From positions 77,871 to 141,870 of IMG/VR virus record IMGVR_UViG_2880152234_000004: a stretch of 64,000 nucleotides of DNA; one strand, 5' to 3'. Origin of the DNA: a virus. Its lineage: Duplodnaviria > Caudoviricetes. The notes beneath the pieces are model-generated. The model was not told where the DNA came from. It searched no databases and saw only the letters and a program-made list of their open reading frames with translations. The translations under genes and the position numbers were made by a program. The first letter of the stretch is position 1. Every line of letters starts with the position of its first letter. Shown here piece after piece: positions 35,523 to 59,611 of the stretch.

Positions 35523-35526
35523 TTTT

Positions 35527-35557: not shown

Positions 35558-35576
35558 AATTGAGGAGGTGTTACGT

Positions 35577-36789: not shown

Positions 36790-36904
36790 ATATATTCAAT
36801 TATCTCGGAGGGTATTTGTTGATCTAATGTATCAGTGACTATCCTCTTAATTTTAGGAGGTGATGTAATGTCACCTTTCTATATTCATTAAAGGTTGGTG
36901 ACAA

Positions 36905-37297: not shown

Positions 37298-37317
37298 AAT
37301 TAACAGGAGACGATTAA

Positions 37318-37569: not shown

Positions 37570-37576
37570 AACCCCC

Positions 37577-37609
37577 TACCCTTCTCTCGATTGAGGAGGG
37601 TATTTTTTT
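37577..37609 (+). terminator. Terminator ending the late operon
   Basis: TACCCTTCTC/GAGGAGGGTA stem plus T7. Confidence 0.85.
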
Positions 37610-37723
37610 CGTTTTTTTTAAATAAAAAATTGCAGAAAACTTTACATCCTTTTACAATTTTTTCAATGACTATGTTATGATTGTTTTCGAGGGATTTTTG
37701 AAATTTCAGAAAGAGGGGTTTGT

Positions 37724-38839: not shown

Positions 38840-38958
38840 AAAAACTTGTGCTTTGCGTATCTATTTTAGCTGTAATTTTAAGTGGGGTAGCTTTAACGCA
38901 ATTGAGTACAGATTCACCATCTAACATCCAGGTAGCCGAAAGGCCTGTCGGAGGTTAA
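38836..38958 (+). CDS. phrK: Phr signalling peptide precursor (MKKLVLCVSILAVILSGVALTQLSTDSPSNIQVAERPVGG)
   Basis: 40 aa, ATGA overlap with rapK, mature ERPVG(G); missing from track. Confidence 0.92.
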   Translation: MKKLVLCVSILAVILSGVALTQLSTDSPSNIQVAERPVGG

Positions 38959-38976
38959 AAAAAAGGTTGATTAATT

Positions 38977-39006
38977 AGCCCTACTCAAACATTTGAGTGG
39001 GCTTTT
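38977..39006. terminator. Terminator between phrK and uvrX
   Basis: AGCCCTACTCAAA/TTTGAGTGGGCT plus T-run. Confidence 0.75.
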
Positions 39007-39009
39007 ATG

Positions 39010-40260: not shown

Positions 40261-40585
40261 TGTATGTAACTCCTATGATGTTATTCATGTTGACATAAAC
40301 TGTATTGTCGTTCTGGTCTTTTACGTGAAGCTTTTGTTGTTCAAAATTAATGTAATGTACTCTGCCGGTAACATTTTCAACGAATCCATTGTTAAAGAGT
40401 TTGAATTTCAACTCTTTATTAAATTCCAATGCCTCAGAGACGAGAAGATCCATCTCTTCAATTTGTTGGTCATCTAAGGATGGCTTTTCAATTTTTGATA
40501 CATCAATCAAATCTTGTTTAAGCTGTGTTAAATGTTCTGGAAGCATCATTGATGTCCATTTGATTGTTCCTCGGTCTCTAAGCAT
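40253..40585 (-). CDS. yolD: YolD-family accessory protein
   Basis: MLRDRGTIKWTSMMLPEH signature. Confidence 0.93.
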   Translation of the reverse strand: MLRDRGTIKWTSMMLPEHLTQLKQDLIDVSKIEKPSLDDQQIEEMDLLVSEALEFNKELKFKLFNNGFVENVTGRVHYINFEQQKLHVKDQNDNTVYVNMNNIIGVTYND

Positions 40586-40619
40586 ATCGACTCACTCCTT
40601 TATTAATCTAATATTAACA

Positions 40620-40661
40620 GAACAAACGTTCTTTATTCAAGAGAAACCAGAACAAAGGTTC
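40620..40661. promoter_or_regulatory. Two LexA (Cheo) boxes upstream of yolD-uvrX
   Basis: GAAC-AAAC-GTTC 40620-40631 and GAAC-AAAG-GTTC 40650-40661. Confidence 0.88.
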
Positions 40662-40757
40662 GGTGTAAATGTTGGAAATAAAATTAAAGGTCAATAATGA
40701 TATACGTAGTATTAATAAAGGAGGGATTCTTTTCCACAAAGGAGAGTGTATTGGTGA

Positions 40758-41093
40758 ATGAAGAAGAGGCTAATCGGATTTTTGATCTTAGTTCCTGCTT
40801 TGATTATGTCGGGTATTACTTTAATCGAATCAAACAAAAAAGCACCTGAAGAAGTTTTAGAAAGTGCTTGGGATGAATTTGGTTTATTTAGTTTTCAAAT
40901 TGGAATAACAGATCCGGCAATTACAATTGGCATGGATCAAACCAAAAGTGAGGCAAAGCTCCGTGAATATTTAGAACATAATCTGTCAAGAGAAGCAAAA
41001 CAAAAATATAAGATTTATGTATTCAAAGATGATATTGATAAATTGGAGAAAGAACATCGAGAGTATTTGCAAGCAAATAACCCCAATAAGTAA
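40758..41093 (+). CDS. yolC: Membrane-anchored/exported protein
   Basis: 111 aa, N-terminal TM, synteny. Confidence 0.82.
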   Translation: MKKRLIGFLILVPALIMSGITLIESNKKAPEEVLESAWDEFGLFSFQIGITDPAITIGMDQTKSEAKLREYLEHNLSREAKQKYKIYVFKDDIDKLEKEHREYLQANNPNK

Positions 41094-41134
41094 AACGCCC
41101 AGCACTTTATTAAGCTGGGCATTGTTTTCATTAT

Positions 41135-41500
41135 TTAAATTGAATTTTTATAAGCATTAATTGCTTCGTTTCGCAGCAGCATATTATTTTTGTTAACCAT
41201 ACCTAAGTTATAAGTTTTTTTGATAATATCTAATACCTGTGAATCTAATGCAGAGAGATTGCCTCCCGGATTAAATCTTGATTTCCAATAATCTAAAGAC
41301 TTATTTAGGTCAAATGAGCTTTTTTTGTTCTCAGGTTTAACTACCTCATTTTTCTCAAGTTTTTCACAGAATTTACTAAAACCAATTGATGAAGGAGTTG
41401 GGTTATTCCCTCCGTATCCTTCTGTAGCCAAACTGCAAAATGCTAAGAACTTTGGATCTTTAGTTACATCATAATTAGAAGTGCTAATCACCTGGTTCAC
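41135..41500 (-). CDS. yolB: Uncharacterised SPbeta protein
   Basis: 121 aa, coupled to yolA. Confidence 0.78.
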
Positions 41501-41964
41501 TCTCTTTCAAAATCAATTTTTCGGCTGTAAACAAAAGTAGTGCCTGAGCTTAATGCTTTAATCTGTATAGAGTTATCTTGAAGTGCGTCCATTGGAATCT
41601 CAAAATATTTATCCCAGCCTATAACTACCTTATTCTGACCAAGAATGGCATCGGATTTATACATCCTAGCTGTACCATCATATAACAGATTTTTTCCATC
41701 TTTACCCGTGATAACTGTTAACTTTGTATACCCCATAAAACGAGCCTTAACGTGAAGTTTATCACCTTTTAAAACACTTGGAGCTTTGGTTTGACTAAAA
41801 GTGATGTTATCCCAAGCAAAATCGTTCCCGTCTGATGTAATCCCTGTAATTTGCAGATAATAAAGTGGTGTTGCTTCTGCTGCTTTGGCTTTTGTTGGAT
41901 CAGTGTAAGCAAAAGCTACTACTGCTAGAAAAGCAAGCAGCACATACGTAATTCTTTTCTTCAT
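41497..41964 (-). CDS. yolA: Secreted protein
   Basis: 155 aa with signal peptide (AKA|AEA). Confidence 0.85.
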
Positions 41965-42194
41965 TTCCTAAATCCTCCTTGGTACAAGTTTACATGTTAA
42001 ATATCGTCATTTGAAAGGAATTGTTTAATATTTGAAATAAAAAAGAACCTGCATTTTGCAAGTTCATTCATATTGTCAATTTATTGTGAGTTTTTAACGA
42101 CAAGGACATTTATGTATAGTATAATATTTCCTGTACATTAAGATTGCTCACTCAAGGGAGTCTTGCTCATCCCCTAATGAAAGGGGGTGATGCT

Positions 42195-42278
42195 ATGTCA
42201 ACATTCCAGGCATTAATGTTAATGCTTGCATTCGGGTCGTTTATAATCGCCCTGTTGACGTATATAAATAAAAAATAG
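42195..42278 (+). CDS. Type I toxin, BsrH/BsrE family (MSTFQALMLMLAFGSFIIALLTYINKK)
   Basis: 27-aa TM peptide; AAGGGGGTGA RBS sequestered by upstream TCATCCCCT; missing from track. Confidence 0.9.
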   Translation: MSTFQALMLMLAFGSFIIALLTYINKK

Positions 42279-42456
42279 ACCTCCCTTGAGCCTCAGAACC
42301 TAAAGGGATAGGTCTACCAAGAAACCACATCGAGCAAGCCCTTTGATGGGCAACTTTTTGTACAGAGCCGGGGTGTTGGTAGCACCCTGGTCTTTTTATT
42401 TTATGCATTTCTTATTAAACAAATGCATTTTTTATACTTTAAAAAGTATAATCCTC
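42266..42456 (-). ncRNA. Antisense RNA antitoxin (SR5/as-bsrH-like); ends approximate
   Basis: Minus-strand TTGCAA(42492-87)-18-TATAAT(42468-63); hairpin TAGACCT..AGGTCTA 42276-42316 followed by U-run on minus strand. Confidence 0.7.
42366..42402 (+). terminator. Toxin mRNA terminator
   Basis: GCCGGGGTGT/GCACCCTGGT plus T-run. Confidence 0.8.
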
Positions 42457-42503
42457 ATCCTAATTATAACCATATAAAAATGGTATTTGCAATACTATTG
42501 CTT

Positions 42504-42531
42504 TATGGTTAAAACCATTATTTTATTGGAA
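42504..42531. repeat. 28-bp palindromic site copy 6 (TATGGTTAAAA ccatta TTTTATTGGAA)
   Basis: Dispersed family; between TA module and yokL. Confidence 0.65.
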
Positions 42532-42560
42532 CCCAGTACTTTATCGATGCACAAGTGATA

Positions 42561-43069
42561 TTATCCATGATTCAGTTCAAATTCTTCTCTTGTCATCCCA
42601 AAGCAAATACCATCATAATAGGCACCTTTAGTGAAAATGATCTTTCTTAGTTGTCCCTCTTTCATGAAACCTAATTTTTCATGTAATCGTATGGATGGAT
42701 TATTAAAAGAATAAACAGTTGTATTTACTTTTTGATAAGCAAGTTCCAAAAAGAAAAAGCGAAGAACCATCAAGATCATTTCTTTGGCAAATCCTTTGCC
42801 CCTATATGGCTCGAATACAGCCAAATAATAACCGAAGGTACCATTTTTCCTATCACAGTCAAAGGTTTCAATCATACCTACTATATACGGAATTCATCTT
42901 TTTCTAATTGTTCTTCTACCCATTCTCTCATGTTATTAGCTGAACGAGGAAAATGTAGCGAGTCCATATTTCGCAGAATTTCATCATCTAACGAATCAAA
43001 TATAACGATATCTTCAGGTTGAATTGCTCGCAGTGTAAGATTCTCCCCTGTCCAATAAGTAACTGCCAT
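42561..43069 (-). pseudogene. yokL: GNAT acetyltransferase, frameshifted by a short internal deletion
   Basis: Two consecutive out-of-frame pieces (..EKDEFR / MIETFDCD..) of one RimJ/RimL-type GNAT; break near 42885. Confidence 0.85.
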
Positions 43070-43104
43070 TTTAACTTTTCCTCCAGTTATCTCCATACGT
43101 TTTC

Positions 43105-43683
43105 TTAACTGCTTAGTAAGTCATCATCTAATTCAATATACAGAATTCCATCATCTTCTTTATCAGCTTCAATTGGTTCATCAACTAAACTGAAGACAAA
43201 CTCCTCAAACGAATTGGCAATTAAGAAAAAGTCTTTGTCGGGATGACTTAATTCATGATCCCAAAACAATATCTTTCCATTATCGATATCCATGCATATT
43301 TCATTCCCGCCTGCAGAGCTTGCTATAGGAATAATATTTCTAGGAAAGCGATCAGAATATGTATCTATTGCTTTCTGAAGACTGTTATGATCGTTCGCTA
43401 AACCATAAAAACCTTCTAACAATTGTGTATCATCGCCCTTGCCCATCCAAGGATCTTTCTCTAAAGGTTTATAGCAAACGTCATACTCAATTTCATCTGT
43501 TGTTTTTGTACTTTCTAGATAACAGCCGCCATATTCCTTCAAAAAATCCTTATAATCAGAAGGTAATTGTTTTCCTATGTTCATTTCAATTTCTTTGAGT
43601 TGTTCATTTTTATTGATTCTGGGATCTGTTTTTGCATCAATTGAAAACTCTTTCAACATTTGTTTGATATTATTGAAGCTCAT
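43105..43683 (-). CDS. yokK: SMI1/KNR4 (SUKH) immunity protein
   Basis: LPSDYKDFL..YGG, IPIASSAGGN, IANSFEEF; ATG 43683 gives 192 aa. Confidence 0.85.
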   Translation of the reverse strand: MSFNNIKQMLKEFSIDAKTDPRINKNEQLKEIEMNIGKQLPSDYKDFLKEYGGCYLESTKTTDEIEYDVCYKPLEKDPWMGKGDDTQLLEGFYGLANDHNSLQKAIDTYSDRFPRNIIPIASSAGGNEICMDIDNGKILFWDHELSHPDKDFFLIANSFEEFVFSLVDEPIEADKEDDGILYIELDDDLLSS

Positions 43684-43737
43684 ATTAATCCCCTCCGCAT
43701 TGCACACTTTAGCAATGAACAATTGCAATACTTTTGT

Positions 43738-44196
43738 TTAATTGTCTAAACTAACTTTCAATGCATCAGCTAGCATGGCGTTAAAATCATTAAATTTGTT
43801 CATCAGCGTTCCAGAGGGTTTATCAAGCTCTAAGTATTCATTCTCAATTACATCTAAACAATACCAAGCTGTATCTGAGTCACCAAAAAACAGATATTTT
43901 TTCTGCTCATCATTTTCGTGCCACTGTTCATTTGTTTCAATAAAACCATAAACTTCTTCATCATTTTCTTCTCTCAGTAATTCTTGATCCAATCCATAGA
44001 TTACCAAGCCATTAAAATCTAATCCGTTTACAGTTTGAAGGAATTTTTTATATTCTAAAGGAATCTCATTTACAGGGAACTTACCTAATACTGCTTCTTC
44101 AAAGTTCCTTATTTCTTGGTCTGTAACAGGAGAATTTAATTCATCTCCATACTTTGCTTCAGTTTTTCGAATTTCCTCTAATAAATTTACCCACAT
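43738..44196 (-). CDS. SUKH/YrhA-like immunity protein, probable cognate of the LXG toxin
   Basis: IPLEYKKFLQTVNGLDFNGL motif; acidic; directly downstream of toxin. Confidence 0.8.
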   Translation of the reverse strand: MWVNLLEEIRKTEAKYGDELNSPVTDQEIRNFEEAVLGKFPVNEIPLEYKKFLQTVNGLDFNGLVIYGLDQELLREENDEEVYGFIETNEQWHENDEQKKYLFFGDSDTAWYCLDVIENEYLELDKPSGTLMNKFNDFNAMLADALKVSLDN

Positions 44197-44208
44197 AATA
44201 CTGCCCCC

Positions 44209-46113
<1,905 letters not shown>

Positions 46114-46194
46114 CTACTCTATGTAAATTTTACCACAATAATCTATTTGAATAACAGAAAAAGACAGCCGAAAATGACCGCCTTAAACATCGTG

Positions 46195-46736
46195 CTACCT
46201 TGTTCTATAATAATTTTCTGCGGTATAGTAGCGCCATTCCCAAAAAGTTGCCCCATTGGATTCTATATACCGATCTAGAAATATCTCAAAGTTTAAATTT
46301 AATGGTGTATACTCTCCTAATTGTAATATAAAAAGATAGTTGGGATCACCCTTATCCAATTTATCTTTGTCGATCATCAAATGACAACCTTCTAATAAAT
46401 GACCAATTGGGATGCCATTGATACCTTCAAATAAATCCTCATATTTTAGTTCCTTTTCAATCTCTTCAAGGCTAAATAAATAAAGTCCCCCACCTATATT
46501 CTCCCCATCAAAAAGAATCTGAAAAATTTTCGCACCATTATGTAGTGTCATGAACTTCTGATAATCCTTTGGAAGGCTAAGTTGGTGTTTAGCATCAAAG
46601 CTTTGGAGGTCATTCAGGGTTGCTTTGTCCTCTGAAAATGTAACAAGGAACTCCATGATATATCCTTCAGAACAAAATAATTTAATGGCCTCTTTTTCAT
46701 CTAACCGTTGACTGTCTTATGAACAAAGTTAGTCAA
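46195..46736 (-). pseudogene. yokH: SMI1/KNR4 protein with N-terminal frameshift
   Basis: GGGGTGA RBS + TTG 46736 (MTNFVHKT) stops at codon 12; [22 protein letters not shown] continues in another frame. Confidence 0.72.
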
Positions 46737-46802
46737 ATAAATCACCCCATATATAAATGCTATTTATAATCACGGATACATGGCAAATGAAACTTTAATA
46801 AT

Positions 46803-47005
46803 TTAAACATTAACAATTTTATTCATAATTGAAGCAGCATTAGTAGTGAACAAAATATATGTACATTTAGTTGTTTTAATCACTACCCTGTCGGTAGAGA
46901 TAAAAGGAAATCCAATCCTTACTGCGCTTTTCTCTTCTCCCCAATAGTTTGGATCAAGCAATACCTCGTTAATTAATTTCTCTGATTGGAATTTCACTTT
47001 TGAAT
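46803..47005 (-). pseudogene. 3' part of a SunI/YnzG-like gene, degraded
   Basis: [32 protein letters not shown] motif; frameshifts at its 5' side. Confidence 0.65.
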
Positions 47006-47091
47006 AAATTCGCAAATTCAGGGTGGTGTTTAATCTTTATGACAACTTTCCACTGATAAATTTTTAAAAATCATCACCAAGAATGTCCTTA

Positions 47092-48177
47092 TCATTGATT
47101 TTCAAGCTTAGCCCTAGCGATCTTCATATATTCACTGATAAATGGCGATTCCATTCTTTGTAACCCTCCCATGTGTTGGGGAAGAACTAAACTTTTTGCA
47201 AATCTAGAGTCTGTTAACCACGGTAGAGCTATTTTTTTGGTAACTCTATTATTTGAGAAATTTATAATTTCGTGGTTATCATCTACTGAATTGAAAAATT
47301 TCACTTCTCTTTCTAGTTCATTAATTTTAGACGTATTCTTATTTTTATTATAAATTTTTCTAATATAATCCTCTTTTATTCTCTGATTAAAGAACGTGTT
47401 ATCATAAGAGTTTAAATAAAACAATTCATTTAAATAATCTATTTCTCGGGCTCTTTTTAATGTCAGAACACCATTTTCTGCCTCTGGAATATCATATGCT
47501 TCACTATCGTAAAAGAGTAAACAATGCTGAGAAGATATTGGAAGGAATAACTGTAGCCCTCTAGTAACAAGGCCAAAACCCCTTCCATGATAATTCCTTC
47601 CAATATAAAATGAATTGTAACGAACTAATGGATTGTCTGATGTTATGAACTTTCTTGATGTTTTCTGTAATATCAAGATAGGTTCCAAATCATAAATTAG
47701 CGGGGTACTTTCTAAAGCAATACCTATAATATTATTAGCAGGTTGATTTATCTTGATTTCAAATTGGTCTAAATCTACTTCTTTAAAATCAGGATGTCCC
47801 TTAATCATTGTTTTGATCAGTTTATCAGCTGCATTTTCTGCTGAGTCAGCACTCCGTAAATTTCTTCCCTCACTAACTAATAAAAAAGTAAGTAGATGCT
47901 CATAATCTTCTATTTCATTAACAAAGTCTAGGATACTGTTTGTGTCTATAATTTTCTTTATAATTCTCGCGGCTTTTCTTTCAATCTCTTTATCTAAAAA
48001 ATCCTCAACTACTTTGTCGTCACCGTAGAAATTGTTTCTTTGACACATATCTTTAATCGAAGCATTTTGGATGTATAATGAATTCATGATATTAAATGTG
48101 CTAATTGATTTGTCAGTTTCAGAAAAATTTCTCAAATAAAATTTCGGAACATAGTGCTGTCTACTTTTTTGTCCCAT
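47092..48177 (-). CDS. DUF4238-family protein; candidate anti-phage gene
   Basis: RQHYVPKFYLRNFS, FITSDNP, LPISSQHCL motifs; GGAGG RBS before MGQKS. Confidence 0.82.
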   Translation of the reverse strand: MGQKSRQHYVPKFYLRNFSETDKSISTFNIMNSLYIQNASIKDMCQRNNFYGDDKVVEDFLDKEIERKAARIIKKIIDTNSILDFVNEIEDYEHLLTFLLVSEGRNLRSADSAENAADKLIKTMIKGHPDFKEVDLDQFEIKINQPANNIIGIALESTPLIYDLEPILILQKTSRKFITSDNPLVRYNSFYIGRNYHGRGFGLVTRGLQLFLPISSQHCLLFYDSEAYDIPEAENGVLTLKRAREIDYLNELFYLNSYDNTFFNQRIKEDYIRKIYNKNKNTSKINELEREVKFFNSVDDNHEIINFSNNRVTKKIALPWLTDSRFAKSLVLPQHMGGLQRMESPFISEYMKIARAKLENQ

Positions 48178-48269
48178 ACTTGCTCCTCCCATATCCCTTT
48201 ACTGGACAATTTTACTCCACCTATTATTTGAATTTTAATAACTTCTTTCATTGACTCTAATATGTGAAG

Positions 48270-48322
48270 GTACAAACACTTAATTAAGTTCCATTTGATT
48301 TTTCAACTGTAATCTCTAGCAT
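48270..48322 (-). pseudogene. 5' part of the SunI/YnzG-like gene (MLEITVEKSNG...)
   Basis: GAAGGGA RBS, ATG 48322, sequence typical of the family N-terminus. Confidence 0.5.
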
Positions 48323-48495
48323 AAGACCATTCCCTTCTGATAACGAACCTAGTAAAATTTTAACATGCGCCAACAAAACCTAAACAGAGATGTGATTATA
48401 TTAAGGAAAAATTAAATTCACAATAATTGGATACAGGATTATAATTATTGATGGTTTACCGATATAAATAGAGAACAAACATTCTAAAAGGGGAA

Positions 48496-49392
48496 ATGAA
48501 ATTGAAGAAAGTATTATTAGGTTTTGCAGCATTCACTTTGAGCTTATCGTTGGCAGCCTGCAGCTCAAATGATTCTGAAAAAGTAAGCACAGAAAAAGAA
48601 ACACCACAAGCGTCTTCGGATGTAGAAAAGAAAACAGAACAAAAGGAATCTACTAAAGAAAAAACTACTCACAAGCCTAAGGAAAAAGACAAAAAGGAAT
48701 TAGTCGATGTGACATTAGATAGAGCAGTTGATGGAGATACGATTAAGGTTAATTACAACGGAAATGTAGACACAGTGCGCTACTTGCTCATAGACACACC
48801 TGAGACGAAGAAACCAAATTCATGTGTTCAACCGTATGGCGAAGATGCTTCTAAGCGAAATAAAGAATTGGTCAGCAATGGTAAACTGCAGCTTGAATTT
48901 GATAAAGGTGACGGGAGAGATAAGTATGGAAGACTATTAGCTTACGTTTATGTCGATGGCAAGTCTGTTCAGGAAACATTATTGAAAGAAGGATTAGCCA
49001 GAGTAGCCTATGTATATGAGCCAAATACGAAATACATAGACCAATTTAAGAAAGACGAGCAAGAAGCAAAAACAGAGAAGCTTTCTATTTGGAGTAAGAA
49101 TGGATATGTGACTGACCGAGGGTTTAATGGCTGTGTGAAAGAAAAAACCACTGCAGTTAAAAAAGCAACAACATCTAAATCGGCAGCAACACAGCCTACA
49201 ACTCCAAAAACATCAAGTGAAACTTCGACTACAACTGAAAACGAAGCTTCTTCAGAGTCAACTGGAGAAACAGAAACATTTAAAAATTGTACTGAGTTAA
49301 GAAAGAAATATCCGAATGGAGTACCTAGCTCGCACCCTGCTTACCAATCGAAAATGGATAGGGATCATGACAACTATGCTTGTGAACGTTAA
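48496..49392 (+). CDS. yokF: Thermonuclease-family lipoprotein with Excalibur domain
   Basis: Lipobox LAAC; VDGDT, IDTPET, DKYGRLLAY; DRDHDNYACE. Confidence 0.93.
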   Translation: MKLKKVLLGFAAFTLSLSLAACSSNDSEKVSTEKETPQASSDVEKKTEQKESTKEKTTHKPKEKDKKELVDVTLDRAVDGDTIKVNYNGNVDTVRYLLIDTPETKKPNSCVQPYGEDASKRNKELVSNGKLQLEFDKGDGRDKYGRLLAYVYVDGKSVQETLLKEGLARVAYVYEPNTKYIDQFKKDEQEAKTEKLSIWSKNGYVTDRGFNGCVKEKTTAVKKATTSKSAATQPTTPKTSSETSTTTENEASSESTGETETFKNCTELRKKYPNGVPSSHPAYQSKMDRDHDNYACER

Positions 49393-49470
49393 TTGAAAGC
49401 CCTTTGTGGCTTTCTTTTTTTAATATGTAATATAAAAAACCCCTCCTCTAAATAAAGGAGAGGAATAGAT

Positions 49471-50352
49471 TTATAGAGAACCCCAGATAGATTTACCACC
49501 TGTATGTCCAGTTTTTTCATGTATAGTTCTATTTACTAATTGCAATCTGCCTGTATTTTCATGATGGTGCCATATATACCCTCGTGGAGTTTTCCCATTT
49601 TTAATGTCTTGAATCTGATACTTATTAAATTTTTTCGCATGCTCCCAAGTATTAATTGCCTTCTTCAAAGATGCGTTTGCATTTTTAAACTGAGTACTAT
49701 TTGAAGATTTAATTAGACTCATAGGGAGATTGTAATTGTATTTAGATGCGAAAACAGGAAAACCTTTAGAATTAAATTTTACACCAGTCTTAGGGTGCTT
49801 CTTTCCTGCGAGCTTACCATTTCTGACTGCAATTTTCTTTGTTGTTGACTTTAACGTCTGCTTAACTAAGAGCTTACCTCCGACACGACTAACAACAGCA
49901 ATTGCAGGTGGAATTAACCAAGCCCATTGAGCATGATAAGATTCATCCTCACCTACATCATCAGTTTCTGGTTCAGTGGCGCTTTCAGTCGGAGTTACAA
50001 CATTCTCTTCAAATTCACTATCAGGAACACTTTCGTCTTCAATGATTTCTTCTTGCGCTGCGTCCTCTAATAAATTTTCATCTTCATAGACTGGAGCATC
50101 TACTAAATTATTATAATACGAATCTTCCGAAACATCAGAGTAATCTTCGTATGATTCCTCTTCGTAGTTAAAGTCATCCTCATACTCTTCATACTCGGAA
50201 TCAACCGGATTTTCATCTGATCCTTGAACTGACTCTGTTCCAGATTGAACCGGCTGTTCAATTGACTGTGCTTCAGCAAAGTTCGGCAATACAAAAGTTA
50301 GCAGCAGGAGCAAACTCAAAACGACACTCAAAATCTTCTGATAGCTTTTCAT
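49471..50352 (-). CDS. Sec-exported HNH (WHH-like) nuclease toxin with acidic pro-region
   Basis: Signal peptide (AEA|Q), ~110-aa D/E-rich tract, hydrophobic QWAWLIPPAIAVV, basic domain with TPRGYIWHHHE..LQLV..H...HTGG. Confidence 0.8.
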   Translation of the reverse strand: MKSYQKILSVVLSLLLLLTFVLPNFAEAQSIEQPVQSGTESVQGSDENPVDSEYEEYEDDFNYEEESYEDYSDVSEDSYYNNLVDAPVYEDENLLEDAAQEEIIEDESVPDSEFEENVVTPTESATEPETDDVGEDESYHAQWAWLIPPAIAVVSRVGGKLLVKQTLKSTTKKIAVRNGKLAGKKHPKTGVKFNSKGFPVFASKYNYNLPMSLIKSSNSTQFKNANASLKKAINTWEHAKKFNKYQIQDIKNGKTPRGYIWHHHENTGRLQLVNRTIHEKTGHTGGKSIWGSL

Positions 50353-50444
50353 TAATTTCCTCTTTTCTTTAGGATTTTTAACACATTTCCATTCTAGTAC
50401 AAATGATGTTAAAAATAAACAAAAAGAGGAAAATTATACTCATT

Positions 50445-51284
50445 TTACAAGAAGTCTTTGAGTTGATCTAATATAATCTCAGTATCTTCATTTTCAGACT
50501 TTCCTAACTCATTAACAGCTTCTTGTACGACAGCTCTTAGATTATTTGATTGTATTTGAGGTGAATATGAAGAAACAATCGACATCAAAACGTCAGCCAA
50601 TTCAAAAGCCATGTCACCTTGTGCTCCTATAGAATTATCTTTAATAATGTTCAGCAACCACTTTAGGTCTTCAACACTTTGGATTGGAAAAAGAGAAAGC
50701 CTATGAATCTCCATGGGGTTCTTATTAGCCAGGAGTTTTTCGACTTCTTCCTTCTGAATAGCATCTGGATCATTTGGATCAATACTTAGAATTTCATCAA
50801 AATCTAAATTTTCGTCTTCTTGAACTTCTTCGTATTCGTGTGTATAGAGTTTAGATAAGAATTCATCAAATGAATCTGCAATCTTAAAATCATTATTAAA
50901 TTCAAGATCAAAGTAATGAACAGGTGGATTTTCATTAGTTAGACGATAATCTAACGCAACCCAATTATGTCCATCCCCCTGTATTAACAATAATCTTTGT
51001 GGTAGACCCCACTCTTTTATTAGATATTCACTTTCTAAAATCCCCAGATCCTTTCCTATTCCTCTAATATGATCAACTCCAATATGGTCGTCTGCCCACG
51101 ATGTTTCCTGATCTGTTGGGTATGCATTAAAATTAATCAATCCACCATTTTGTTGGATAATCAATTTTTTATATTGTTCAGGTAAAGTTAGATTTAACTC
51201 TTGTTCAACATTCTTTATTTCATCTTCACTAATGTCTTTTAACCTAAAAGGATCATATTCACTGTTCTCCCAAAACTCACTCAT
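50445..51284 (-). CDS. SMI1/KNR4 immunity protein with acidic helical extension
   Basis: LPEQY....QNGG, GDGHNWVALDY, IADSFDEF. Confidence 0.87.
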   Translation of the reverse strand: MSEFWENSEYDPFRLKDISEDEIKNVEQELNLTLPEQYKKLIIQQNGGLINFNAYPTDQETSWADDHIGVDHIRGIGKDLGILESEYLIKEWGLPQRLLLIQGDGHNWVALDYRLTNENPPVHYFDLEFNNDFKIADSFDEFLSKLYTHEYEEVQEDENLDFDEILSIDPNDPDAIQKEEVEKLLANKNPMEIHRLSLFPIQSVEDLKWLLNIIKDNSIGAQGDMAFELADVLMSIVSSYSPQIQSNNLRAVVQEAVNELGKSENEDTEIILDQLKDFL

Positions 51285-51550
51285 AGTATTACCTCCTATG
51301 CGCTATGCAATGATTCTCCAAGACTATACGCTTTTAAATTCGGAAAGTTTTATCAAAGTTGTGATGGAAAATAAAACAGACGGTGATGTTCTTCACATGA
51401 GGCTTATCTTAGAAGAAAAGCCAGAGAGTATGTGAGGGAACTCTCTGGCCTATAGTGGCTGATATACCAACTATGATACATCTATAGGATACTTTATATT
51501 TGTGATGTATTCAAGATAAGATATATTTTATTGTTTAATGACCAGTTGAG

Positions 51551-51763
51551 TTACGCCTGATATCTCCTGCTGCTACTAGAACCAACATTTCTAAAGAGTA
51601 AGGAAGCAATCAAAGCTAAAACAAAATAAACAACTACAAACCCGCCCCAGAAGAAAAGCGCTTCATCGAATGGAAATCCAAATAGTCTAAAAATAACCCT
51701 GTGAACAATACCGGTAATAATAATCAGGATACTTGAAGATATTGCAAAAGTAATATGTTTCAT
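51551..51763 (-). CDS. Small two-TM membrane protein, likely bacteriocin immunity
   Basis: Last gene of Lcn972-like operon; AAGGAG RBS. Confidence 0.7.
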   Translation of the reverse strand: MKHITFAISSSILIIITGIVHRVIFRLFGFPFDEALFFWGGFVVVYFVLALIASLLFRNVGSSSSRRYQA

Positions 51764-51776
51764 CAAGAACAACTCC

Positions 51777-52397
51777 TTACGAAAGATTTATTACTCTATC
51801 AGAGCAGTTAGCTATTTCTGGATCATGCGTTACACATATGATTGTTTTCCCCATTTCTTTCAACTGATGGAAAAGAGAAAGAATAATGTTCTTGTTGTAC
51901 TCATCAAGGTTTCCGGTCGGTTCATCGGCCAAAATGATATCGCAGGGTTTTAGAATAATCCTGGCTATTGCTACACGCTGTTGCTCACCACCGCTCAACT
52001 GGTATACCTTTTTCTTTAAAAAGCTTTTATCTAAGCCTACCATCTCTAGAGCTTCAGATAGCTTGTTTTTGTCAAAGTCTTTTGCGTATGCTGTGGAAAG
52101 CAATAAATTCGTTAATACAGTTTCATTATCCATAAGCACATAGTTTTGAAAGATATATCCTAAATTCTCTCTCCTTAACTTCATCACCTCTTTAGATTTA
52201 GGATTTTCATAGCCTAAAATCACAACTTTACCTTCATCTGGGTAATCTAAGAGGCTGATTATATTTAGAAGAGTGGTTTTGCCAGAACCGCTCTTGCCAA
52301 CAATAGAAACGAATTCATTTTCCTCTATGTGAATTGAAAAGTTAGAAAGAACTGATTTTCCATCAAAACTTTTGGATATGCTTTTAAGTTCGATCAT
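51777..52397 (-). CDS. ABC transporter ATP-binding protein (bacteriocin-associated)
   Basis: GKSGSGKTT, LSGGEQQR, ILADEPTG. Confidence 0.95.
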   Translation of the reverse strand: MIELKSISKSFDGKSVLSNFSIHIEENEFVSIVGKSGSGKTTLLNIISLLDYPDEGKVVILGYENPKSKEVMKLRRENLGYIFQNYVLMDNETVLTNLLLSTAYAKDFDKNKLSEALEMVGLDKSFLKKKVYQLSGGEQQRVAIARIILKPCDIILADEPTGNLDEYNKNIILSLFHQLKEMGKTIICVTHDPEIANCSDRVINLS

Positions 52398-54565
52398 AAT
52401 CTGTCTCCTTTTAAAATCTTATTCATGTTTTTCCTGTTCAAATAAAGGCTGAGGAAATACAGAATAATCATCTCAATTCCAATGAACAATACAATCAAGC
52501 CTATTAATTCATAGATTTTATAATAAATAATAAAGCAGATTCCGATCAGACAGTTAGATACAGTCGACAATATGATTAAGCTCTTATTTCTAGCCCAGTA
52601 TGAATATCCAAATATCTCTTTAAGGTAAAGTCGATACGCATTTGCACTGTAGTATGACCATATATAAGAGATAAGGAAGGCTACTGACAATATGAGTGTT
52701 ATAGTTAATCCAATTAGATTCTGGATGAACTGATTTTGAATTCGTGCTATTTGGTCGCTTAATTCTTGATAGACTGATATCGCAGAACCAATCAGCTCTC
52801 TTGTATCTGTTTTATCTAAGTAAGGGATGATGTGGTCATATGCCATACCTTTTGAGGTATCAGAAAAGAATAAACTTGAGGTTGCATATGCACCTATAAC
52901 TGATGAATCAACATTATCAGTGAATACAGTTGCAATTGGATCAACAATATTGTTTTTATTGTTGCCGAGCGTACTGTTATAAGTGAAGTATTCTTGATTA
53001 TTTTGTGTAAATATTATATTGATTTCCAACTGATCTTTTTCCAGTGTATTTAATGGATGCTGGATTTCTTTGTTATACATATTGTCTACTTCAACCTTAT
53101 CAAAGAAAAATTGATCTTTGTAAGCTTTGAGGATTTTTTCTTTATACTTAGCGTATTTTTTTGGAACAAGTAAATTCAATGTGTTTTGATCGAGAGTTAA
53201 TTGTTTTTCAGTAATCGTTTTTCCGTTAACTCCTTTAATGGTGTTTACTTTTAAATAATTAGGACTGATCGTTACGCTTCTTCCCGATGGTGAATAAATT
53301 TCATTTTCTTTGGTTGTATTCAATGTATAGAAATAAACTGGAGTTTTCCCATTCATTTTCAGTATTCCATAGTTTTGAGCATCCATTATAAACGCATCTT
53401 TATGTCTTTCTAATTCATGATAAAGCTTTCGTACCTTCTCGTTTTTTTCTCTATCAATTTTTAAATCACTGTAGTTCAAACCTGTATTAGCAAAACTGGT
53501 TTTATAAACTGTTTGTGTCTTATTCCAGTAAGATTGATTGTCTAGCCGTTGTTTTAAATCGAACAAATTAGAGAGGGATGAAGCAAAAATATTAAAAAGT
53601 AGGATTGTCACAATTAACTTAAAACCCAATGACAGCCATTGAAACTTTTTAAATGGTATGCCGCCTTTTATCGTGGCGCTTATATTGCTGTTGTTATATA
53701 AAATCAAAGTAACAATAATTGTGTATATCATCATTGAGAATGTCACAATCAGTGCATTTCGCATGTACATTTTAACGTACACTGATAACCAGTCGTTTAG
53801 GTTGAATATAAAAGCCAGAATTACAATAAGAAGGGCGCCGCAAATTATAATCATAACAAGTGGTTTTAAAAACATTTTTGGGAAAGTTAACAGCGATTTG
53901 GTTTTTGAATATCCCCATAGCTTCTGTAAGAGAAGTTGCTTGCGATTCTTAATTACGAAATAAAGTATGCCAATAAATAAGATTAACATGGAAAGCAAAG
54001 CTAACAAGAGTAATGCGGTGCTGAACACAGCAGAGTCATTTAAACTGATGTTTTCTTCCATACTAACATTGCCATAGTCTGAGAATAGCTTTTTAGCTTG
54101 TTCAATTACATCTTCATCCTCGGATGAAATATAAAATCTATTTCCTAACCCTACGTTGTTTATTTGGTTTAAATTGAAGTATCTAATTTTCCATGTTGAT
54201 AAAGGGAAATCAATAGTACCAATCAAATTTTCATCTGATCCATTTGCTGTTTTATTGAAATTAGATATGAACCTATCTCCTATTTTGATTGAAGGTTCAT
54301 TCTTAAGGTTTGAAGCGTAGATATTTAAGGTCTTCTCGTCTAAAAAATTGTATTGAGTAATATTCACGTTTTCTTTTTTTGAAAATTCAGCTATTTTCTT
54401 AATGAAATCATCATTTTTAAAGTGTGCTTTGTTGTAATTAATAATTAAAGTTTGTTTATTAGAGAATAAAGTATAAAAAACTTGCTTATTCAAAGTATAG
54501 TGATAGCTGGATATGTTCATTGAGAGTAAAAATAGAATGAACAATATATAAATCGTTTTCTTCAT
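52394..54565 (-). CDS. Bacteriocin-associated ABC permease (DUF1430-type)
   Basis: Multi-TM, duplicated K..GYS motifs; ATG 54565 with GGAGG RBS. Confidence 0.82.
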   Translation of the reverse strand: MKKTIYILFILFLLSMNISSYHYTLNKQVFYTLFSNKQTLIINYNKAHFKNDDFIKKIAEFSKKENVNITQYNFLDEKTLNIYASNLKNEPSIKIGDRFISNFNKTANGSDENLIGTIDFPLSTWKIRYFNLNQINNVGLGNRFYISSEDEDVIEQAKKLFSDYGNVSMEENISLNDSAVFSTALLLLALLSMLILFIGILYFVIKNRKQLLLQKLWGYSKTKSLLTFPKMFLKPLVMIIICGALLIVILAFIFNLNDWLSVYVKMYMRNALIVTFSMMIYTIIVTLILYNNSNISATIKGGIPFKKFQWLSLGFKLIVTILLFNIFASSLSNLFDLKQRLDNQSYWNKTQTVYKTSFANTGLNYSDLKIDREKNEKVRKLYHELERHKDAFIMDAQNYGILKMNGKTPVYFYTLNTTKENEIYSPSGRSVTISPNYLKVNTIKGVNGKTITEKQLTLDQNTLNLLVPKKYAKYKEKILKAYKDQFFFDKVEVDNMYNKEIQHPLNTLEKDQLEINIIFTQNNQEYFTYNSTLGNNKNNIVDPIATVFTDNVDSSVIGAYATSSLFFSDTSKGMAYDHIIPYLDKTDTRELIGSAISVYQELSDQIARIQNQFIQNLIGLTITLILSVAFLISYIWSYYSANAYRLYLKEIFGYSYWARNKSLIILSTVSNCLIGICFIIYYKIYELIGLIVLFIGIEMIILYFLSLYLNRKNMNKILKGDRL

Positions 54566-54579
54566 TGGATAGCCTCCAT

Positions 54580-54623
54580 AAAAAAAATCCGGTGCCTTAT
54601 ATTCAAGTTTTGACGGCACCGGA
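54580..54623 (-). terminator. Terminator/attenuator between bacteriocin gene and transporter
   Basis: TCCGGTGCC/GGCACCGGA stem, U8 on minus strand. Confidence 0.8.
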
Positions 54624-54657
54624 AGATAGATTAGAGATCTCTTTGTTATTGTCTGTT

Positions 54658-55023
54658 TTATTTCGTATCCCAAAAAGCCCTATTTCCCCAAAGAGTTGTA
54701 TACACTGAAGCGTAGGTATACCCTTCATCTTTTTTCTTCCATTTAGATGAAAAGTACCTTTCTCCGCCAGCCGCTGCACTTGATTTGTGAGTCTTTTTAG
54801 TATGATTGTAATTGGATTTAGTTTGCCCACCTTCGAAACCATGATACCAAGTACCGCCACCCGCTTTTTCTTTAGTCAATTTCATGACTTGTATTAAATC
54901 CCTTGTTTCATCCAAGTTAACTTCTCCGTGTGTAGCCTCATCTGAAGAACTAGCAAAAACGACAGAAGATGATACTAGTAAAGTAGCTCCCAACACCATT
55001 GAAGCAAAAACCTTCTTTTTCAA
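54658..55023 (-). CDS. Lactococcin 972-family bacteriocin precursor
   Basis: Signal peptide; GGGTWYHG..SNYNH...H.SS...GNRAFW signature. Confidence 0.88.
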   Translation of the reverse strand: MKKKVFASMVLGATLLVSSSVVFASSSDEATHGEVNLDETRDLIQVMKLTKEKAGGGTWYHGFEGGQTKSNYNHTKKTHKSSAAAGGERYFSSKWKKKDEGYTYASVYTTLWGNRAFWDTK

Positions 55024-55430
55024 TATAACCTCTCCTTTTTGTTTTCACAAGAAAATATACTGCATTCTTTCTTGTCAAGTATGAGTATTACACTTAAAAA
55101 ATTATGTCACTTCGTGTTGAAAAGACCTTCAATACCAACATGACGAACCACGAAAAAAACTGATTATGTTACCATATCCCCCCTTCTCAAACACCCAATA
55201 TAAGGAAGTATTGGGTTTATTTGATCATACAATGACTTTTAACCTTTTTCAAGTTCAAATTCCCATGAGATTAGTAAGCGAAGACATAAGGTGATGTAAG
55301 CGTGGAAAGTTGAGAGTTAAATAACTTTTTCGCTCAAATCAGGGATAGATATGCATCATATAGTTATAGAGGAAAAGAAAAAAACCACTCTTGATTAACA
55401 GAGTGACTTTATGAATGTGTTCTATATAAA

Positions 55431-55458
55431 ACTCTTTAAAATGTGAATTTTATTTAGA
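55431..55458. repeat. 28-bp palindromic site copy 7 (ACTCTTTAAAA tgtgaa TTTTATTTAGA)
   Basis: Dispersed family; adjacent to the stop of the 78-aa gene. Confidence 0.65.
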
Positions 55459-55459
55459 A

Positions 55460-55696
55460 TCACCCCCTAATAACTATGTATATAAACCTTAATTTCTTTC
55501 TAATAACAAAAATATAAATTTGTTGTACAGCAATAATGAGCAGTAGAAGGATTATTACCCATACATTAATGTTCAGGTTAAGCAAAAATGTTCCGATGGC
55601 TGGGAATAATTTAGGAAACATAGCAATTAATATATCTTTGATTTCACCAATAGTAGCGATGATTAGTGATAAAATTGCGATTTGTGTTTGATCCAT
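55460..55696 (-). CDS. Small membrane protein of unknown function
   Basis: 78 aa hydrophobic, basic C-terminus; GAGGA RBS. Confidence 0.65.
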   Translation of the reverse strand: MDQTQIAILSLIIATIGEIKDILIAMFPKLFPAIGTFLLNLNINVWVIILLLLIIAVQQIYIFVIRKKLRFIYIVIRG

Positions 55697-56282
55697 TATT
55701 CTTTCCTCCTATAATTCTCATTAGAATTTTATTGAGAGTTAAGTGCAACCTTACTCACAAACATTATAGATAGTTAGTTGAGATATTTAACAACGCTGTG
55801 GAAGCCTTGTTTATCCCAGAATTACTCACCCCTCTCTAATAGCCTCAATAGATAATACCGTCGACTTTTGCTAATCGCACAATACAGCGAAAAAATTTTC
55901 CGTCATTATTAGTTGCGTATAGACTTTCCAAGACGGACAACCATTCATTTGAACTTCTACCTACACTTATAAAATGGGTATAGTAACGGTCATTGACATC
56001 GAATTTAAAAATAAATTTCTCCCATCATAATATAACTGCGTAGCGACCTCCGGAATGGCACAACCTTTTCATAAATAACTGCATATAAACTTTGAAAAAC
56101 GGACACTTTTCGCTGGAATTTTTTCGTCCTCACTTATAGATGCGTAAATACTACGGAAAATGGACAAAAAAATCCCCCGTCTTTAAAGACGAGGTCGGAA
56201 TCATGTTAAAATTCATTTTATTTTATTATAAACTCGTTATATTCGCCAACATGTATACCGTTCTAACAAGACTTTCCACTCC

Positions 56283-56686
56283 TCAACTCTTATATTGATT
56301 TTTAAAGGTTAAGTGTTTAATTCCCTGATCCTTAAAAACTTGACGAATATAAGGTGGAGAATAATCGTAAGCCCGACTAATTTCCTTCAAGCTCATTTTC
56401 TTATTGAAATGTAGATCATAAAGGAAAGCAAAGTCCTTAGATCGTCTACGCTTAGACAACTCCTGAAATGAAAGCTTGTCCACATTTTGAGCTTTAAATA
56501 AATCTAAAATAATCCAATCAGAAATATTTAGTTTCTTAGAAATCTCTCCTACAGTTTTAAGCTCTTCAAAATGCATTTTCTTGATCTCATTAAATCGCTC
56601 TAAATATCGCTGCCATACGTATTCATGCTGACGTTGAGGCTGGGGGATATCAAGTTGGGAAGTAACATAAAAGTTAAAACCTTGTT
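56283..56686 (-). CDS. Tandem-HTH protein; frame open to the att junction (probably the 3' part of a split gene)
   Basis: Two LHF...S..EIS....S...I...F..QG-like repeats; no SD before ATG 56576; 38 open codons upstream. Confidence 0.6.
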
Positions 56687-56695
56687 CTTGACGAG
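56680..56695. other. Prophage-host att junction inside spoVK
   Basis: SpoVK translation follows the known protein to AIDTLVK (AAG 56689-56687), then diverges (NKVLTF instead of HMED). Confidence 0.85.
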
Positions 56696-57241
56696 CGTGT
56701 CGATCGCTTCTTTCCCAAAGTCCTTTTCTCCGCCTCTCGCCAGCGAGTAGGCTTCGTCTATAAACAAAATGCCGCCTAATGACTTTTTGATCAAATCTCT
56801 CGTTTTTTGGGCGGTGTGCCCGATATATTCCCCTACCAGATCAGCCCGCTCCGCTTCTATCAGGTGGCCTTTTGACAGGACATTCATTTCAAAGAACAGC
56901 CTGCCGATCAGCCGCGCAACCGTTGTTTTTCCTGTTCCCGGATTTCCTTTAAACATCATGTGCAGCGCTTGCTTCCCCACCTTCAAGCCTTGCTCTGCGC
57001 GTTTTTGGTTCACAAAAATCCAGGCGTATATTTCCTTGATATTGCGTTTCATTTCCTCCATCCCAACTAGTGCGCTCATCTCTTTTTCGATTTCCTTTAA
57101 AATGCCGTGCTTCGCTTCGTTTTTTTGCAATGCAGCTTGATATTCCGCCTCTGCCTCAGCATTCGTCAGCACCTGCTTTTGTCCGTTAAGAATAATGTTG
57201 ATCTGTCCGTTGTTTTTATATGTCACAGCGCGCTCCAACAT
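56687..57241 (-). pseudogene. spoVK: 5' fragment (~185 codons) of sporulation AAA+ ATPase gene interrupted by prophage
   Basis: MLERAVTYKNNG, GNPGTGKTT, LFIDEAY; reads on 28 phage-encoded codons to TAG at 56600. Confidence 0.95.
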
Positions 57242-58027
57242 TTTCACCTCTCTATTCTCTCTATATGATATTCAAGCGGATGCCCTTTGTGACAAACGCC
57301 TATCATGTGTCGAAACAATTGCTTTTATAGGGAATGCTAAGGAATCTTGGGCTTTCCCGAGAAATACTTTATTTCTTATTGTATTCACGGACATGGGGTG
57401 GACAAACCAAGAGATTTTATTTTTAACAATTTTGTAAGGCACACTGGAGATATAATGATATGCCTTTGGCCTATAACCCTTATAACTATCACGTCTCTAT
57501 AATTCCTTGACAGACACTTCCTATACCGCTCATTTTTAACAGCTCAAACGAATCTGTCATCGGAAGCCCTCCTGAAGCGGTGTTCAGTGTCATTTGTATA
57601 CTTCTTTTGCATAACATAACGCTTTCGCATTTGAACAGGAACCGAGCCAAAACACCTGTCCATCTATGGACTGTGGTTTATTTTCCTCCTCATTCAGCCT
57701 ATAAATACCGAGAGATGTCTTCAGCGACACACCTTCCTTTTTTCCTGTCAGCAGATGTAAGGAGCTATGTGCATACGTTTTATGTTTCACATGCCTGGCG
57801 CAACACCGGAGATCAGGCGGCATCAGCGAGATCATAATACTTACAAACACATGACAGGTTCACAGGTTTCATTCAGATTGAATCTGCTGTCGCTTCATGT
57901 GGAATTGTGCGCTTTCCCGAGAAATAATTTCCGCATGCGAAAGGGTTATTTCCTCATTTTACATACGAATGATAATCGTACAAGCATCTGCCGTGTTTTT
58001 TCATATCCTGTAATGAGGTGATAGAGA

Positions 58028-58817: not shown

Positions 58818-58859
58818 AAAAAAACCCCGGCTCCTCATTACGAGAAACCGGGGTTTTTT
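58818..58859. terminator. Bidirectional terminator cwlC/ymaB
   Basis: AAAAAAACCCCGG...CCGGGGTTTTTT. Confidence 0.9.
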
Positions 58860-59478
58860 ATACTAGAATATCAACAACAAATTGGGACCATGTTTCCAGA
58901 CGGTTATAGATCTCGTCCTGTTTTAATTCAGAGACTTTCATCCATTTTCCTGCAATTTGCTCCTTTTCTTTCACTTCCACTTGTGAGCCTGGCTTTAATT
59001 GAAGCGCAGAAAGAATACCGATATGCACTTTGCCGACACTGTTTTCATCATCATTAATCAATCCCAGTGTGACAATCGCCTGTTTATCCTCTTCGTTGAT
59101 TTGCAGTTCTTCCTCAAGCTCGCGATCTGTGTTCAGCTTTAAGACTTCAGCAAATGAGGCTGCTCCTTCGATGGAGTTCATATGCCCTCCAAAGCCGAGA
59201 GAAAGCTTATTGTGCAGACGTGATTCTCCTCCGCCAGCCAGCCGCTCGTAAAGGAAAACTTCATCTTCTCGCTTAATGACGACATAAGGAATTGGCTGCT
59301 TATAATCCGGATTTTCTTCTGCGTCTCCCCTTCTCATTTCACGATAGCCTGTTTCGATCTGAGCCATGATTTCTGTTACTCTGCTATCTTCACTGTTCAC
59401 ACCCTGAAAGGTTAAGCGTTCCTTCTTAAACACGTCATCGCGCGGGGCGACCAAAATGATTTCGTCCATCTTTCCCAT
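58858..59478 (-). CDS. ymaB: NUDIX-like protein
   Basis: RELEEE Nudix-like box; ATG 59478 gives 206 aa; synteny. Confidence 0.9.
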   Translation of the reverse strand: MGKMDEIILVAPRDDVFKKERLTFQGVNSEDSRVTEIMAQIETGYREMRRGDAEENPDYKQPIPYVVIKREDEVFLYERLAGGGESRLHNKLSLGFGGHMNSIEGAASFAEVLKLNTDRELEEELQINEEDKQAIVTLGLINDDENSVGKVHIGILSALQLKPGSQVEVKEKEQIAGKWMKVSELKQDEIYNRLETWSQFVVDILV

Positions 59479-59611
59479 GATTGCTGCGTCCTCCTCATTC
59501 ATTCAAGCCGAAAAGAGCAGATATTAGATCTGCTCAGGCTGTCGAGAAAATCTCGACAGCTTTTTCGAAAAATCAATTGTGCAATAATATAGATGTTTCA
59601 TTCTGAATTGA

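Follow-up and report, generated by a model that had tools for sequence, protein, structure and literature searches.

A spoVK-interrupting SPbeta-like prophage very probably carries the detached C-terminal part of its own large serine integrase

We analyzed a 64,000-nucleotide stretch of Caudoviricetes DNA (IMG/VR record IMGVR_UViG_2880152234_000004, positions 77,871 to 141,870; hereafter the window), in which a 97-residue open reading frame (ORF) lies on the minus strand at 56283..56576, at the right-hand end of an SPbeta-like prophage that interrupts the sporulation gene spoVK. Based on sequence comparison, this ORF and the start-less frame ahead of it very probably represent the detached C-terminal 135 codons of the prophage's own 693-residue large serine integrase (Int, encoded by int), which was split together with spoVK. 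The ORF list and homology assigned the ORF to integrase residues 597-693, with two helix-turn-helix (HTH) repeats, and alignment to the integrase of phage Goe14 assigned the preceding 38 codons (56577..56690, minus strand), which hold no stop or start, to residues 559-596, the linker that runs from the crossover of the phage attachment site (attP) to the first HTH. No evidence against the integrase identity of the ORF was found in this analysis. The detached tail and the split are already known from the literature for the Goe14-type integrase and are not new here; the new observations are the occurrence of the split in 8 further genomes, the tandem-HTH nature of the tail and its lack of a conserved start or ribosome-binding site, the broken state of the tail in small elements, and a small ORF upstream of int.

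Identity of the frame and of the two prophage ends

Megablast of positions 54900-56700 against phage genomes revealed 9 matching records, of which BUCT082, BUCT083, SPR, SPbetaL2 and Goe14 matched exactly positions 56283-56691 at 93.6-94.1% identity, with the match ending at the junction. The same five Spbetavirus records, and no others, were found by tblastn with the 135 residues encoded by the leader and the ORF. These residues were 93-94% identical to the C-terminus of the 693-residue integrase of the five phages, and the coding status of the leader was therefore settled by homology. In all three phage records that were inspected, the match formed the 3' end of one 2082-nt coding sequence, for which the annotation reads serine-type integrase or Pin-like recombinase. 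In the Goe14 record, an 'attachment site' (AAG) is annotated inside this coding sequence, and the same 97-residue ORF is separately annotated as Goe14_00011.

The 693-residue integrase was found to contain, in this order, the Resolvase, Recombinase and Zn_ribbon_recom domains, a coiled-coil-like stretch, a linker and a tandem-HTH extension of about 135 residues. In particular, the Resolvase domain (PF00239) was recognized at residues 24-174 with an E-value of 2e-21, as expected for a large serine recombinase, and was followed by the Recombinase domain (PF07508) at residues 197-302 and the Zn ribbon (PF13408) at residues 315-380, also as expected for this group. Among 37 family members, R29, V30, S31 and Q35 of the serine nucleophile motif were invariant, as were C322, C325, C347 and C364. 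The coiled coil was assigned only from a weak CdvA-like match at residues 391-478 (E 7e-4).

We searched the genome to which the window belongs with Goe14 Int and found two family-level matches, which represent the two integrase halves, both on the minus strand. Residues 1-562 matched at C1:1564087-1565772 (97% identical), and residues 556-693 matched at the window locus (91% identical). The window holds the right-hand 56.7 kb of the prophage (1..56686). Between the two cores, the prophage spans 134,142 bp, and its left end, at G000:C1:1564095, is not part of the window. At the left end, the truncated integrase gene (int') forms a 563-residue ORF (locus L004, 1495-3186, minus strand) that runs into the spoVK 3' part, which adjoins this end at L004 1095-1517. 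The encoded Int' consists of integrase codons 1-558 followed by 5 residues read from spoVK out of frame, and it is 134 kb away from the tail. The window carries the remaining codons, 559-693, fused to the truncated spoVK (SpoVK'; 56600..57247, minus strand). As listed, this ORF runs from GTG 57247 to 56600 and encodes 215 residues, of which the first 187 are native and correspond to a SpoVK-type AAA+ protein with the AAA domain, and the last 28 are phage-encoded and followed by the stop codon. An alternative start, ATG 57241, has a ribosome-binding site of -7.7 kcal/mol as compared with -3.5 kcal/mol for GTG 57247, and it is the more likely true start of spoVK. The gene order in the neighbourhood is taken to be nrdI-nrdE-nrdF-ymaB-cwlC-spoVK, as in B. 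subtilis.

Comparison of the junctions revealed a 5-bp core, TCAAG (56687..56691, minus strand), that is shared by both ends of this prophage and by attP. The attP of Goe14 was found to be an imperfect palindrome of about 58 bp, with 28-nt arms that are 75% complementary and separated by 2 nt, as expected for a serine-integrase site. This palindrome is centred on the AA of TCAAG, so the central AA (window 56688-56689) is the likely crossover. Extrapolation from the 28-nt attP arms places the hybrid attachment site, made of a spoVK half and a phage half, at 56660..56717 (minus strand); no inverted repeat was found within it, as expected for a hybrid site. As in the Goe14-type arrangement, attP lies within the int frame, in the linker codons between the core and the C-terminal extension, and the bacterial attachment site (attB) is the Lys187 codon of spoVK. 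Recombination thus cuts both genes. A first reading of the window, made from the sequence alone, had placed attP inside the gene to which the ORF belongs; this was borne out, the gene being the 693-residue integrase.

Joining of the two prophage ends by script produced a stop-free frame of 693 residues, identical to Goe14 Int at 668/693 positions. The same join restored spoVK without a stop, with 324 codons from the GTG or 322 codons from ATG 57241. Excision thus rejoins both spoVK and int in the in-silico join, in agreement with the proposal in the sequence-only reading that the host gene and a phage gene would be restored together; neither of the outcomes that it had named as contrary, an in-frame stop in the rebuilt attP or the lack of an upstream ORF, was encountered.

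The features that the first reading had noted in the frame itself were largely confirmed. The leader was found on the minus strand as described, with 38 open codons up to 56690 that include no ATG, GTG or TTG. From the stop frequency alone, 38 open codons have a chance of P = 0.079, which matches the earlier estimate of 5-10%. Among the 147 ORFs of at least 60 residues in the window, 3 have a start-less open leader of at least 38 codons and 1 has a leader of at least 88 codons. Beyond the junction, the integrase frame remains open for a further 50 codons inside spoVK', until a TGA at 56843. In the other 5 split loci examined, the nearest in-frame stop was found 0 to 19 codons upstream of the junction, and the open stretch within spoVK' (56691-56843, minus strand) probably reflects chance. 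The two repeats within the 97-residue protein are real, with 12/38 identical residues (E 5e-6 in a single comparison). The residues QEQGF at the junction had been taken as the end of a third repeat, an interpretation that did not hold, as the full-length Goe14 protein contains no tail match just before position 559.

Spread of the split integrase and state of the tail

According to Kohm et al. (bioRxiv 10.1101/2021.11.22.469490), Goe14 integrates into spoVK, and its attP lies inside the part of the integrase gene that encodes the C-terminus. Integration cuts the integrase by 131 residues, and the resulting 97-residue ORF is identical to the lost C-terminus (bioRxiv 10.1101/2021.11.22.469490). 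The re-formation of spoVK during sporulation is left 'to be investigated' in that work (bioRxiv 10.1101/2021.11.22.469490). In a later report, a Goe14 lysogen in spoVK yielded 1e6 PFU/ml after mitomycin C (PMC12361552), which indicates that the split state is reversible. We found no literature other than Kohm et al. on the split integrase, and no papers on elements that interrupt spoVK in hosts other than Bacillus or on the small ORF upstream of int, in a search that covered sources other than subscription journals.

We then compared the integrase core with its relatives. Among 8000 scored candidates, 140 passed an E-value of 1e-30, and the best 120 were listed. Of these 120, 17 are 660-714 residues long and carry the tail, and the junction-type motif encoded by attP is present in 10 of the 17 and lacking in 7. 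The 103 listed short forms include 72 that end in Q-x-x-G-R/G, the ending obtained when the spoVK 3' part is read in the Int frame, and 31 without that ending; the pattern is loose, and about 1 in 10 of its matches is estimated to be false. In genome scans with a tail profile, matches were found in 11 of 400 other genomes of the same class, in 7 of 301 genomes of one further family and in 3 of 400 other genomes of the same phylum. An order-wide scan with the whole protein, in which two candidates were scored per genome, revealed at least two further split genomes, and additional scans of 9, 7 and 4 genomes revealed no new element.

Both junctions, that of the spoVK 5' portion (through Lys187) with the tail and that of the core with the spoVK 3' part, were verified in genomes G157, G130, G165, G198, G424, G576, G804 and G1187. 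The same spoVK Lys187 codon is thus split in 8 other genomes, which together with the present genome represent 8 families and 2 classes. A tail fragment without spoVK alongside was found in G153, G1199 and G1153. In one further genome (G190:C1, loci L015 and L021), we observed two decayed copies of a spoVK 5' fragment joined to the tail, about 48 kb apart, and the integrase core was not found at an E-value of 1e-60. In another (G930:C11, locus L029), a second copy of 15 SpoVK residues (163-177) and a short match resembling the tail are found ahead of an intact spoVK, and this may be the scar of a lost element.

Chromosomal relatives with a tail fused to the core were found in G303, G339, G997 and G1017 (loci L012, L013, L027 and L026), with frames of 665-679 residues; two of these four loci contain a TGA inside the tail match. 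This sub-group has no attP-type motif at the boundary between the core and the tail and no spoVK within 1.5 kb, and it must therefore use a different site.

The state of the tail was compared with element size for those elements with both halves on one contig. The tail was intact in all five elements of 76, 134, about 142, 154 and 158 kb. It was broken in both small elements, by one in-frame stop in that of about 26 kb (G130) and by a frameshift and two stops in that of about 33 kb (G165). Both small elements keep their Int core frames, of 567 and 564 residues, respectively. These two cases suggest that the core but not the tail is retained where only excision matters.

Possible roles of the tail and the direction of recombination

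Kohm et al. describe the integrase extension of Goe14 as being without resemblance to known structures (bioRxiv 10.1101/2021.11.22.469490). Our searches with the tail returned mostly HTH-related sequences. Pfam gave weak, sub-threshold HTH matches only (Sigma70_r4, E 8e-4), and a profile search of solved structures likewise gave weak HTH-like matches, the best of which was a designed repeat protein (E 1e-4). The neighbours of the tail in the ESM Atlas belonged to clusters with HTH_23, HTH_7 or HTH_38 (score 0.92, taken as a lead only), and the PHROG matches corresponded to the N-terminal portion of HNH endonucleases. When 1.84 billion representatives were searched exhaustively with HMMER, 76 proteins reached an E-value of 1e-3 or less, 17 of them 1e-10 or less. 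These 76 comprised short stand-alone fragments, two full-length integrases (P0040 and P0049) and more distant arrays of 3-6 HTH units; an HNH domain was present in one of the three HTH arrays scanned. Judged by these similarities, the tail is a tandem HTH module that most likely binds DNA.

The second constituent that may bear on the direction of recombination is a small ORF located just upstream of int. In the present prophage, synteny and profile comparison identified it as a 48-residue ORF between a YotM homologue and int' (L004 3275-3421 of G000:C1, minus strand), at the left prophage end and hence outside the window. As far as about residue 177, the YotM homologue shares 89% identity with SPbeta YotM; from there it diverges into the 48-residue ORF and int. 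In SPbeta, sprB (58 residues) comes after yotM and abuts the attachment-site end. A small ORF of 48-98 residues was found just upstream of int in all nine spoVK elements, including both small ones, and in leave-one-out comparisons a profile built from eight copies recognized the ninth in every case (E 1e-14 to 1.7e-3). The copies thus form a coherent family, and the ORF is a small gene that travels with the integrase and attachment-site module.

We tentatively favor a joint reading, which may hold but is somewhat short of being probable as a whole, in which Int' and the small ORF excise the prophage, the tail serves the free phage and is dispensable for excision, and the 97-residue ORF is a by-product. 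In the free phage, int would encode 693 residues including the HTH tail, with attP in the linker codons. Recombination of attP with attB at the Lys187 codon of spoVK would cut int and spoVK. The truncated Int' would then excise the prophage, probably together with the product of the small ORF upstream of int. The HTH tail would serve the free-phage state, in integration or in the handling of attP, and would not be needed for excision, and the 97-residue ORF would not be a separately made protein. A more general statement, that this clade of integrases, seen here in 8 families and 2 classes of spore-formers, always targets the spoVK lysine codon and always sheds its tail, so that the enzyme exists in two forms, with the tail needed for integration and its loss permitting excision, is possible but doubtful. 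On that view, the product of recombination would itself help to set the direction of a natural serine integrase, in concert with a new family of small partners encoded just upstream of int.

Several observations weigh against the reading that we favor. The dispensability of the tail for excision is supported by two small elements only, and one of these is broken by a single nonsense codon, which is possibly recent or a sequencing error. Seven listed relatives of 660-668 residues, along with the fused frames in the four chromosomes described above, keep the tail joined to the core, and the fused tails indicate that the tail is compatible with the integrated state in that sub-group. With regard to the small ORF, no BLASTP alignment to SprB was obtained, the hhalign probability was 3%, and similarity to a directionality factor was thus not found in these comparisons; a comparison with Pfam and PHROG also revealed no family for it. 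The idea that the 48-residue ORF is an SprB homologue was dropped for the same reasons, and the ORF is a candidate directionality factor by its position and co-inheritance.

A different account, which we regard as unlikely, makes the self-truncation itself the directionality switch: full-length Int would carry out only the reaction between attP and attB, Int' would recombine the junctions, and no separate factor would be involved. Kohm et al. saw no equivalent of sprB in Goe14 and speculated that the long form of the integrase integrates and the short form excises (bioRxiv 10.1101/2021.11.22.469490). A further report suggests that, in some large serine recombinases, the site at which directionality factors bind may be blocked by the C-terminal extension (PMC12286644). 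The conservation of the split over 8 families and 2 classes and the decay of the tail, with the core kept, in two small elements are also in line with such a switch. However, the conserved small ORF in the sprB position in 9/9 elements makes the absence of a directionality factor doubtful and weakens the premise that the integrase lacks one. Moreover, a constitutive, self-sufficient Int' would destabilize lysogens, such that tight transcriptional control would be needed, and chromosomal relatives with a permanently fused tail exist.

It is also not likely that the split is a frozen accident, in which attP came by chance to lie in the 3' part of int, the full-length and truncated integrases act alike and the split has no regulatory meaning. 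Since attP and int evolve together and travel as a unit, common ancestry by itself could account for the conservation, and the sub-group that keeps its tail fused when integrated is consistent with this. In contrast, the two-HTH module is conserved across distant lineages, which argues for some function, and its decay only in small elements suggests that this function is tied to the free-phage state.

The sequence-only reading had offered the alternative that the 97-residue piece is made in the mother cell by read-through from spoVK and acts as a sporulation-timed directionality factor like SprB. The version of this proposal that we weighed, in which the detached tail, of 97 residues or longer, is made from the spoVK promoter and serves Int' as a directionality factor or regulator timed by sporulation, appears improbable. 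Its transcriptional part stood as plausible. No terminator-like site was found by the terminator scan between spoVK' and the ORF, which makes transcription of the tail from the spoVK promoter plausible; the first such site, a hairpin followed by a T run at 56175..56194 (minus strand), comes about 90 nt past the stop of the ORF and is probably the terminator of the integrase gene. The stop codon of SpoVK' lies at 56600-56602 and the ATG of the ORF at 56576, 23 nt further. Additionally, the ORF is intact here and in five large elements, and it is adjacent to the junction at the prophage end opposite int', like sprB in SPbeta. The intactness in large elements would nevertheless be expected in any case, because the free phage needs the full gene.

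The translational part of the proposal did not stand, as the signals were found to be weak and not conserved. In agreement with the first reading, which had seen no Shine-Dalgarno (SD) sequence ahead of the ATG at 56576, SD pairing was weak at -2.7 kcal/mol, as compared with -6.9 to -11.6 kcal/mol for four genes of the same window with a clear ribosome-binding site; the listed ORF at 58858..59502 scored -1.7 kcal/mol. The methionine of the 97-residue ORF is replaced by leucine in 10 of the 15 homologues aligned. Across six split loci, the position of the first start codon ranged from codon 4 to codon 38, and no SD exceeded -6.0 kcal/mol in strength. From these sequence signals, with their weak SD and unconserved start, the ORF does not appear to be a separately made small protein. 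An SprB-like role of the tail is also disfavored, since two elements with a broken tail retain the core and the small ORF, and it is this other, conserved small ORF that occupies the sprB position. Among sequencing runs, 20 entries contained part of the stretch; the RNA runs contained only 0.06-0.12 of its words and none with the junction, and these words presumably derive from the spoVK part of strains without the prophage. Ribosomal frameshifting from spoVK into the Int frame was considered as well and was rejected, as no slippery heptamer was found by eye and the Int frame is closed upstream in 5 other split loci.

The literal form of the first reading, in which attP splits a separate phage DNA-binding regulator or repressor, as in mycobacteriophage BPs, and regulation depends on integration, is extremely improbable, because the frame upstream of the tail, although the tail resembles a DNA-binding HTH module, continues into the integrase core within one 2082-nt coding sequence in the three phage records inspected and in the rejoined frame of this genome, so that the ORF is a C-terminal extension of the large serine integrase.

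Comparison with known systems and other genes of the prophage

The present prophage shares with Goe14 the same AAG lysine codon of spoVK as attB, an attP within the sequence for the integrase C-terminus and the same 97-residue leftover (bioRxiv 10.1101/2021.11.22.469490). The two differ in that the prophage measures 134,142 bp here as compared with 125,490 bp for Goe14, and in 25 residues of Int. Additionally, the shared core is TCAAG in our reading, with AA at its centre, whereas Kohm et al. give AAG. The SprA/SprB system of SPbeta in spsM is similar in that an SPbeta-type phage occupies a mother-cell sporulation gene by means of a large serine recombinase, with a matching order of yotM, small ORF and attachment site. 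In SPbeta, however, attP lies outside sprA, and the separate 58-residue SprB sets the direction, whereas attP lies inside int here. Kohm et al. report that Goe14 Int has no relevant similarity to SprA and that it is 28% identical to SpoIVCA (bioRxiv 10.1101/2021.11.22.469490). Like the present integrase, SpoIVCA, which belongs to the skin element, is a large serine recombinase whose action restores a sporulation gene of the mother cell. The spoIVCA gene is not known to be interrupted by its own attachment site. The Pfam architecture obtained here, for the present integrase only, shows no HTH tail of this kind.

The analogy that the sequence-only reading had drawn with SSV1 was right in its logic, as an integrase gene is split by its own attP. 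In SSV1 of Sulfolobus, attP is located inside the virus's own integrase gene, which encodes the tyrosine recombinase of an archaeal virus and has a tRNA gene as its target. In both systems, integration splits the integrase gene of the element, and excision restores it. In contrast to SSV1, the enzyme here is a serine recombinase, the target is a sporulation gene that encodes a protein, and the part removed is only an accessory module at the C-terminus. The second analogy, with mycobacteriophage BPs, did not apply, because the split gene is an integrase and not a repressor. In BPs, it is the repressor gene that contains attP, and integration is carried out by a tyrosine recombinase. The likeness is limited to the position of attP in a phage coding sequence, such that the free and integrated states encode proteins of different length; integration-dependent immunity was not found here, where the split gene is int.

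By itself, this instance adds little, because the split, the attP and the 97-residue ORF have been published for a phage whose integrase is 96% identical. Serine integrases have become common tools for one-way genome editing, and their direction is normally set by a separate factor. If the two states of the integrase differ by a removable domain, they would represent a compact natural design for directional control. Three comparisons offer hypotheses in this regard, namely the conservation of the split site in distant spore-formers, the decay of the tail in small elements, and the small ORF in the sprB position.

We also observed a second large serine recombinase in the same genome (locus L006, G000:C1:932032-933510, plus strand), a 508-residue frame that is 30% identical to Goe14 Int over residues 25-521. 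Near the prophage end, an operon at 51777-55023 (minus strand) encodes a secreted 121-residue protein of the lactococcin-972 family (E 5e-7), a 759-residue DUF1430 membrane protein and an ABC ATPase, a set that resembles a bacteriocin together with an export or immunity pair. Farther inside the prophage, at 49471-51284 (minus strand), a gene for a protein with a colicin-DNase/WHH nuclease domain is located next to one for a SUKH (SMI1/KNR4) protein; in polymorphic toxin systems, toxin and immunity genes are usually paired in this way.

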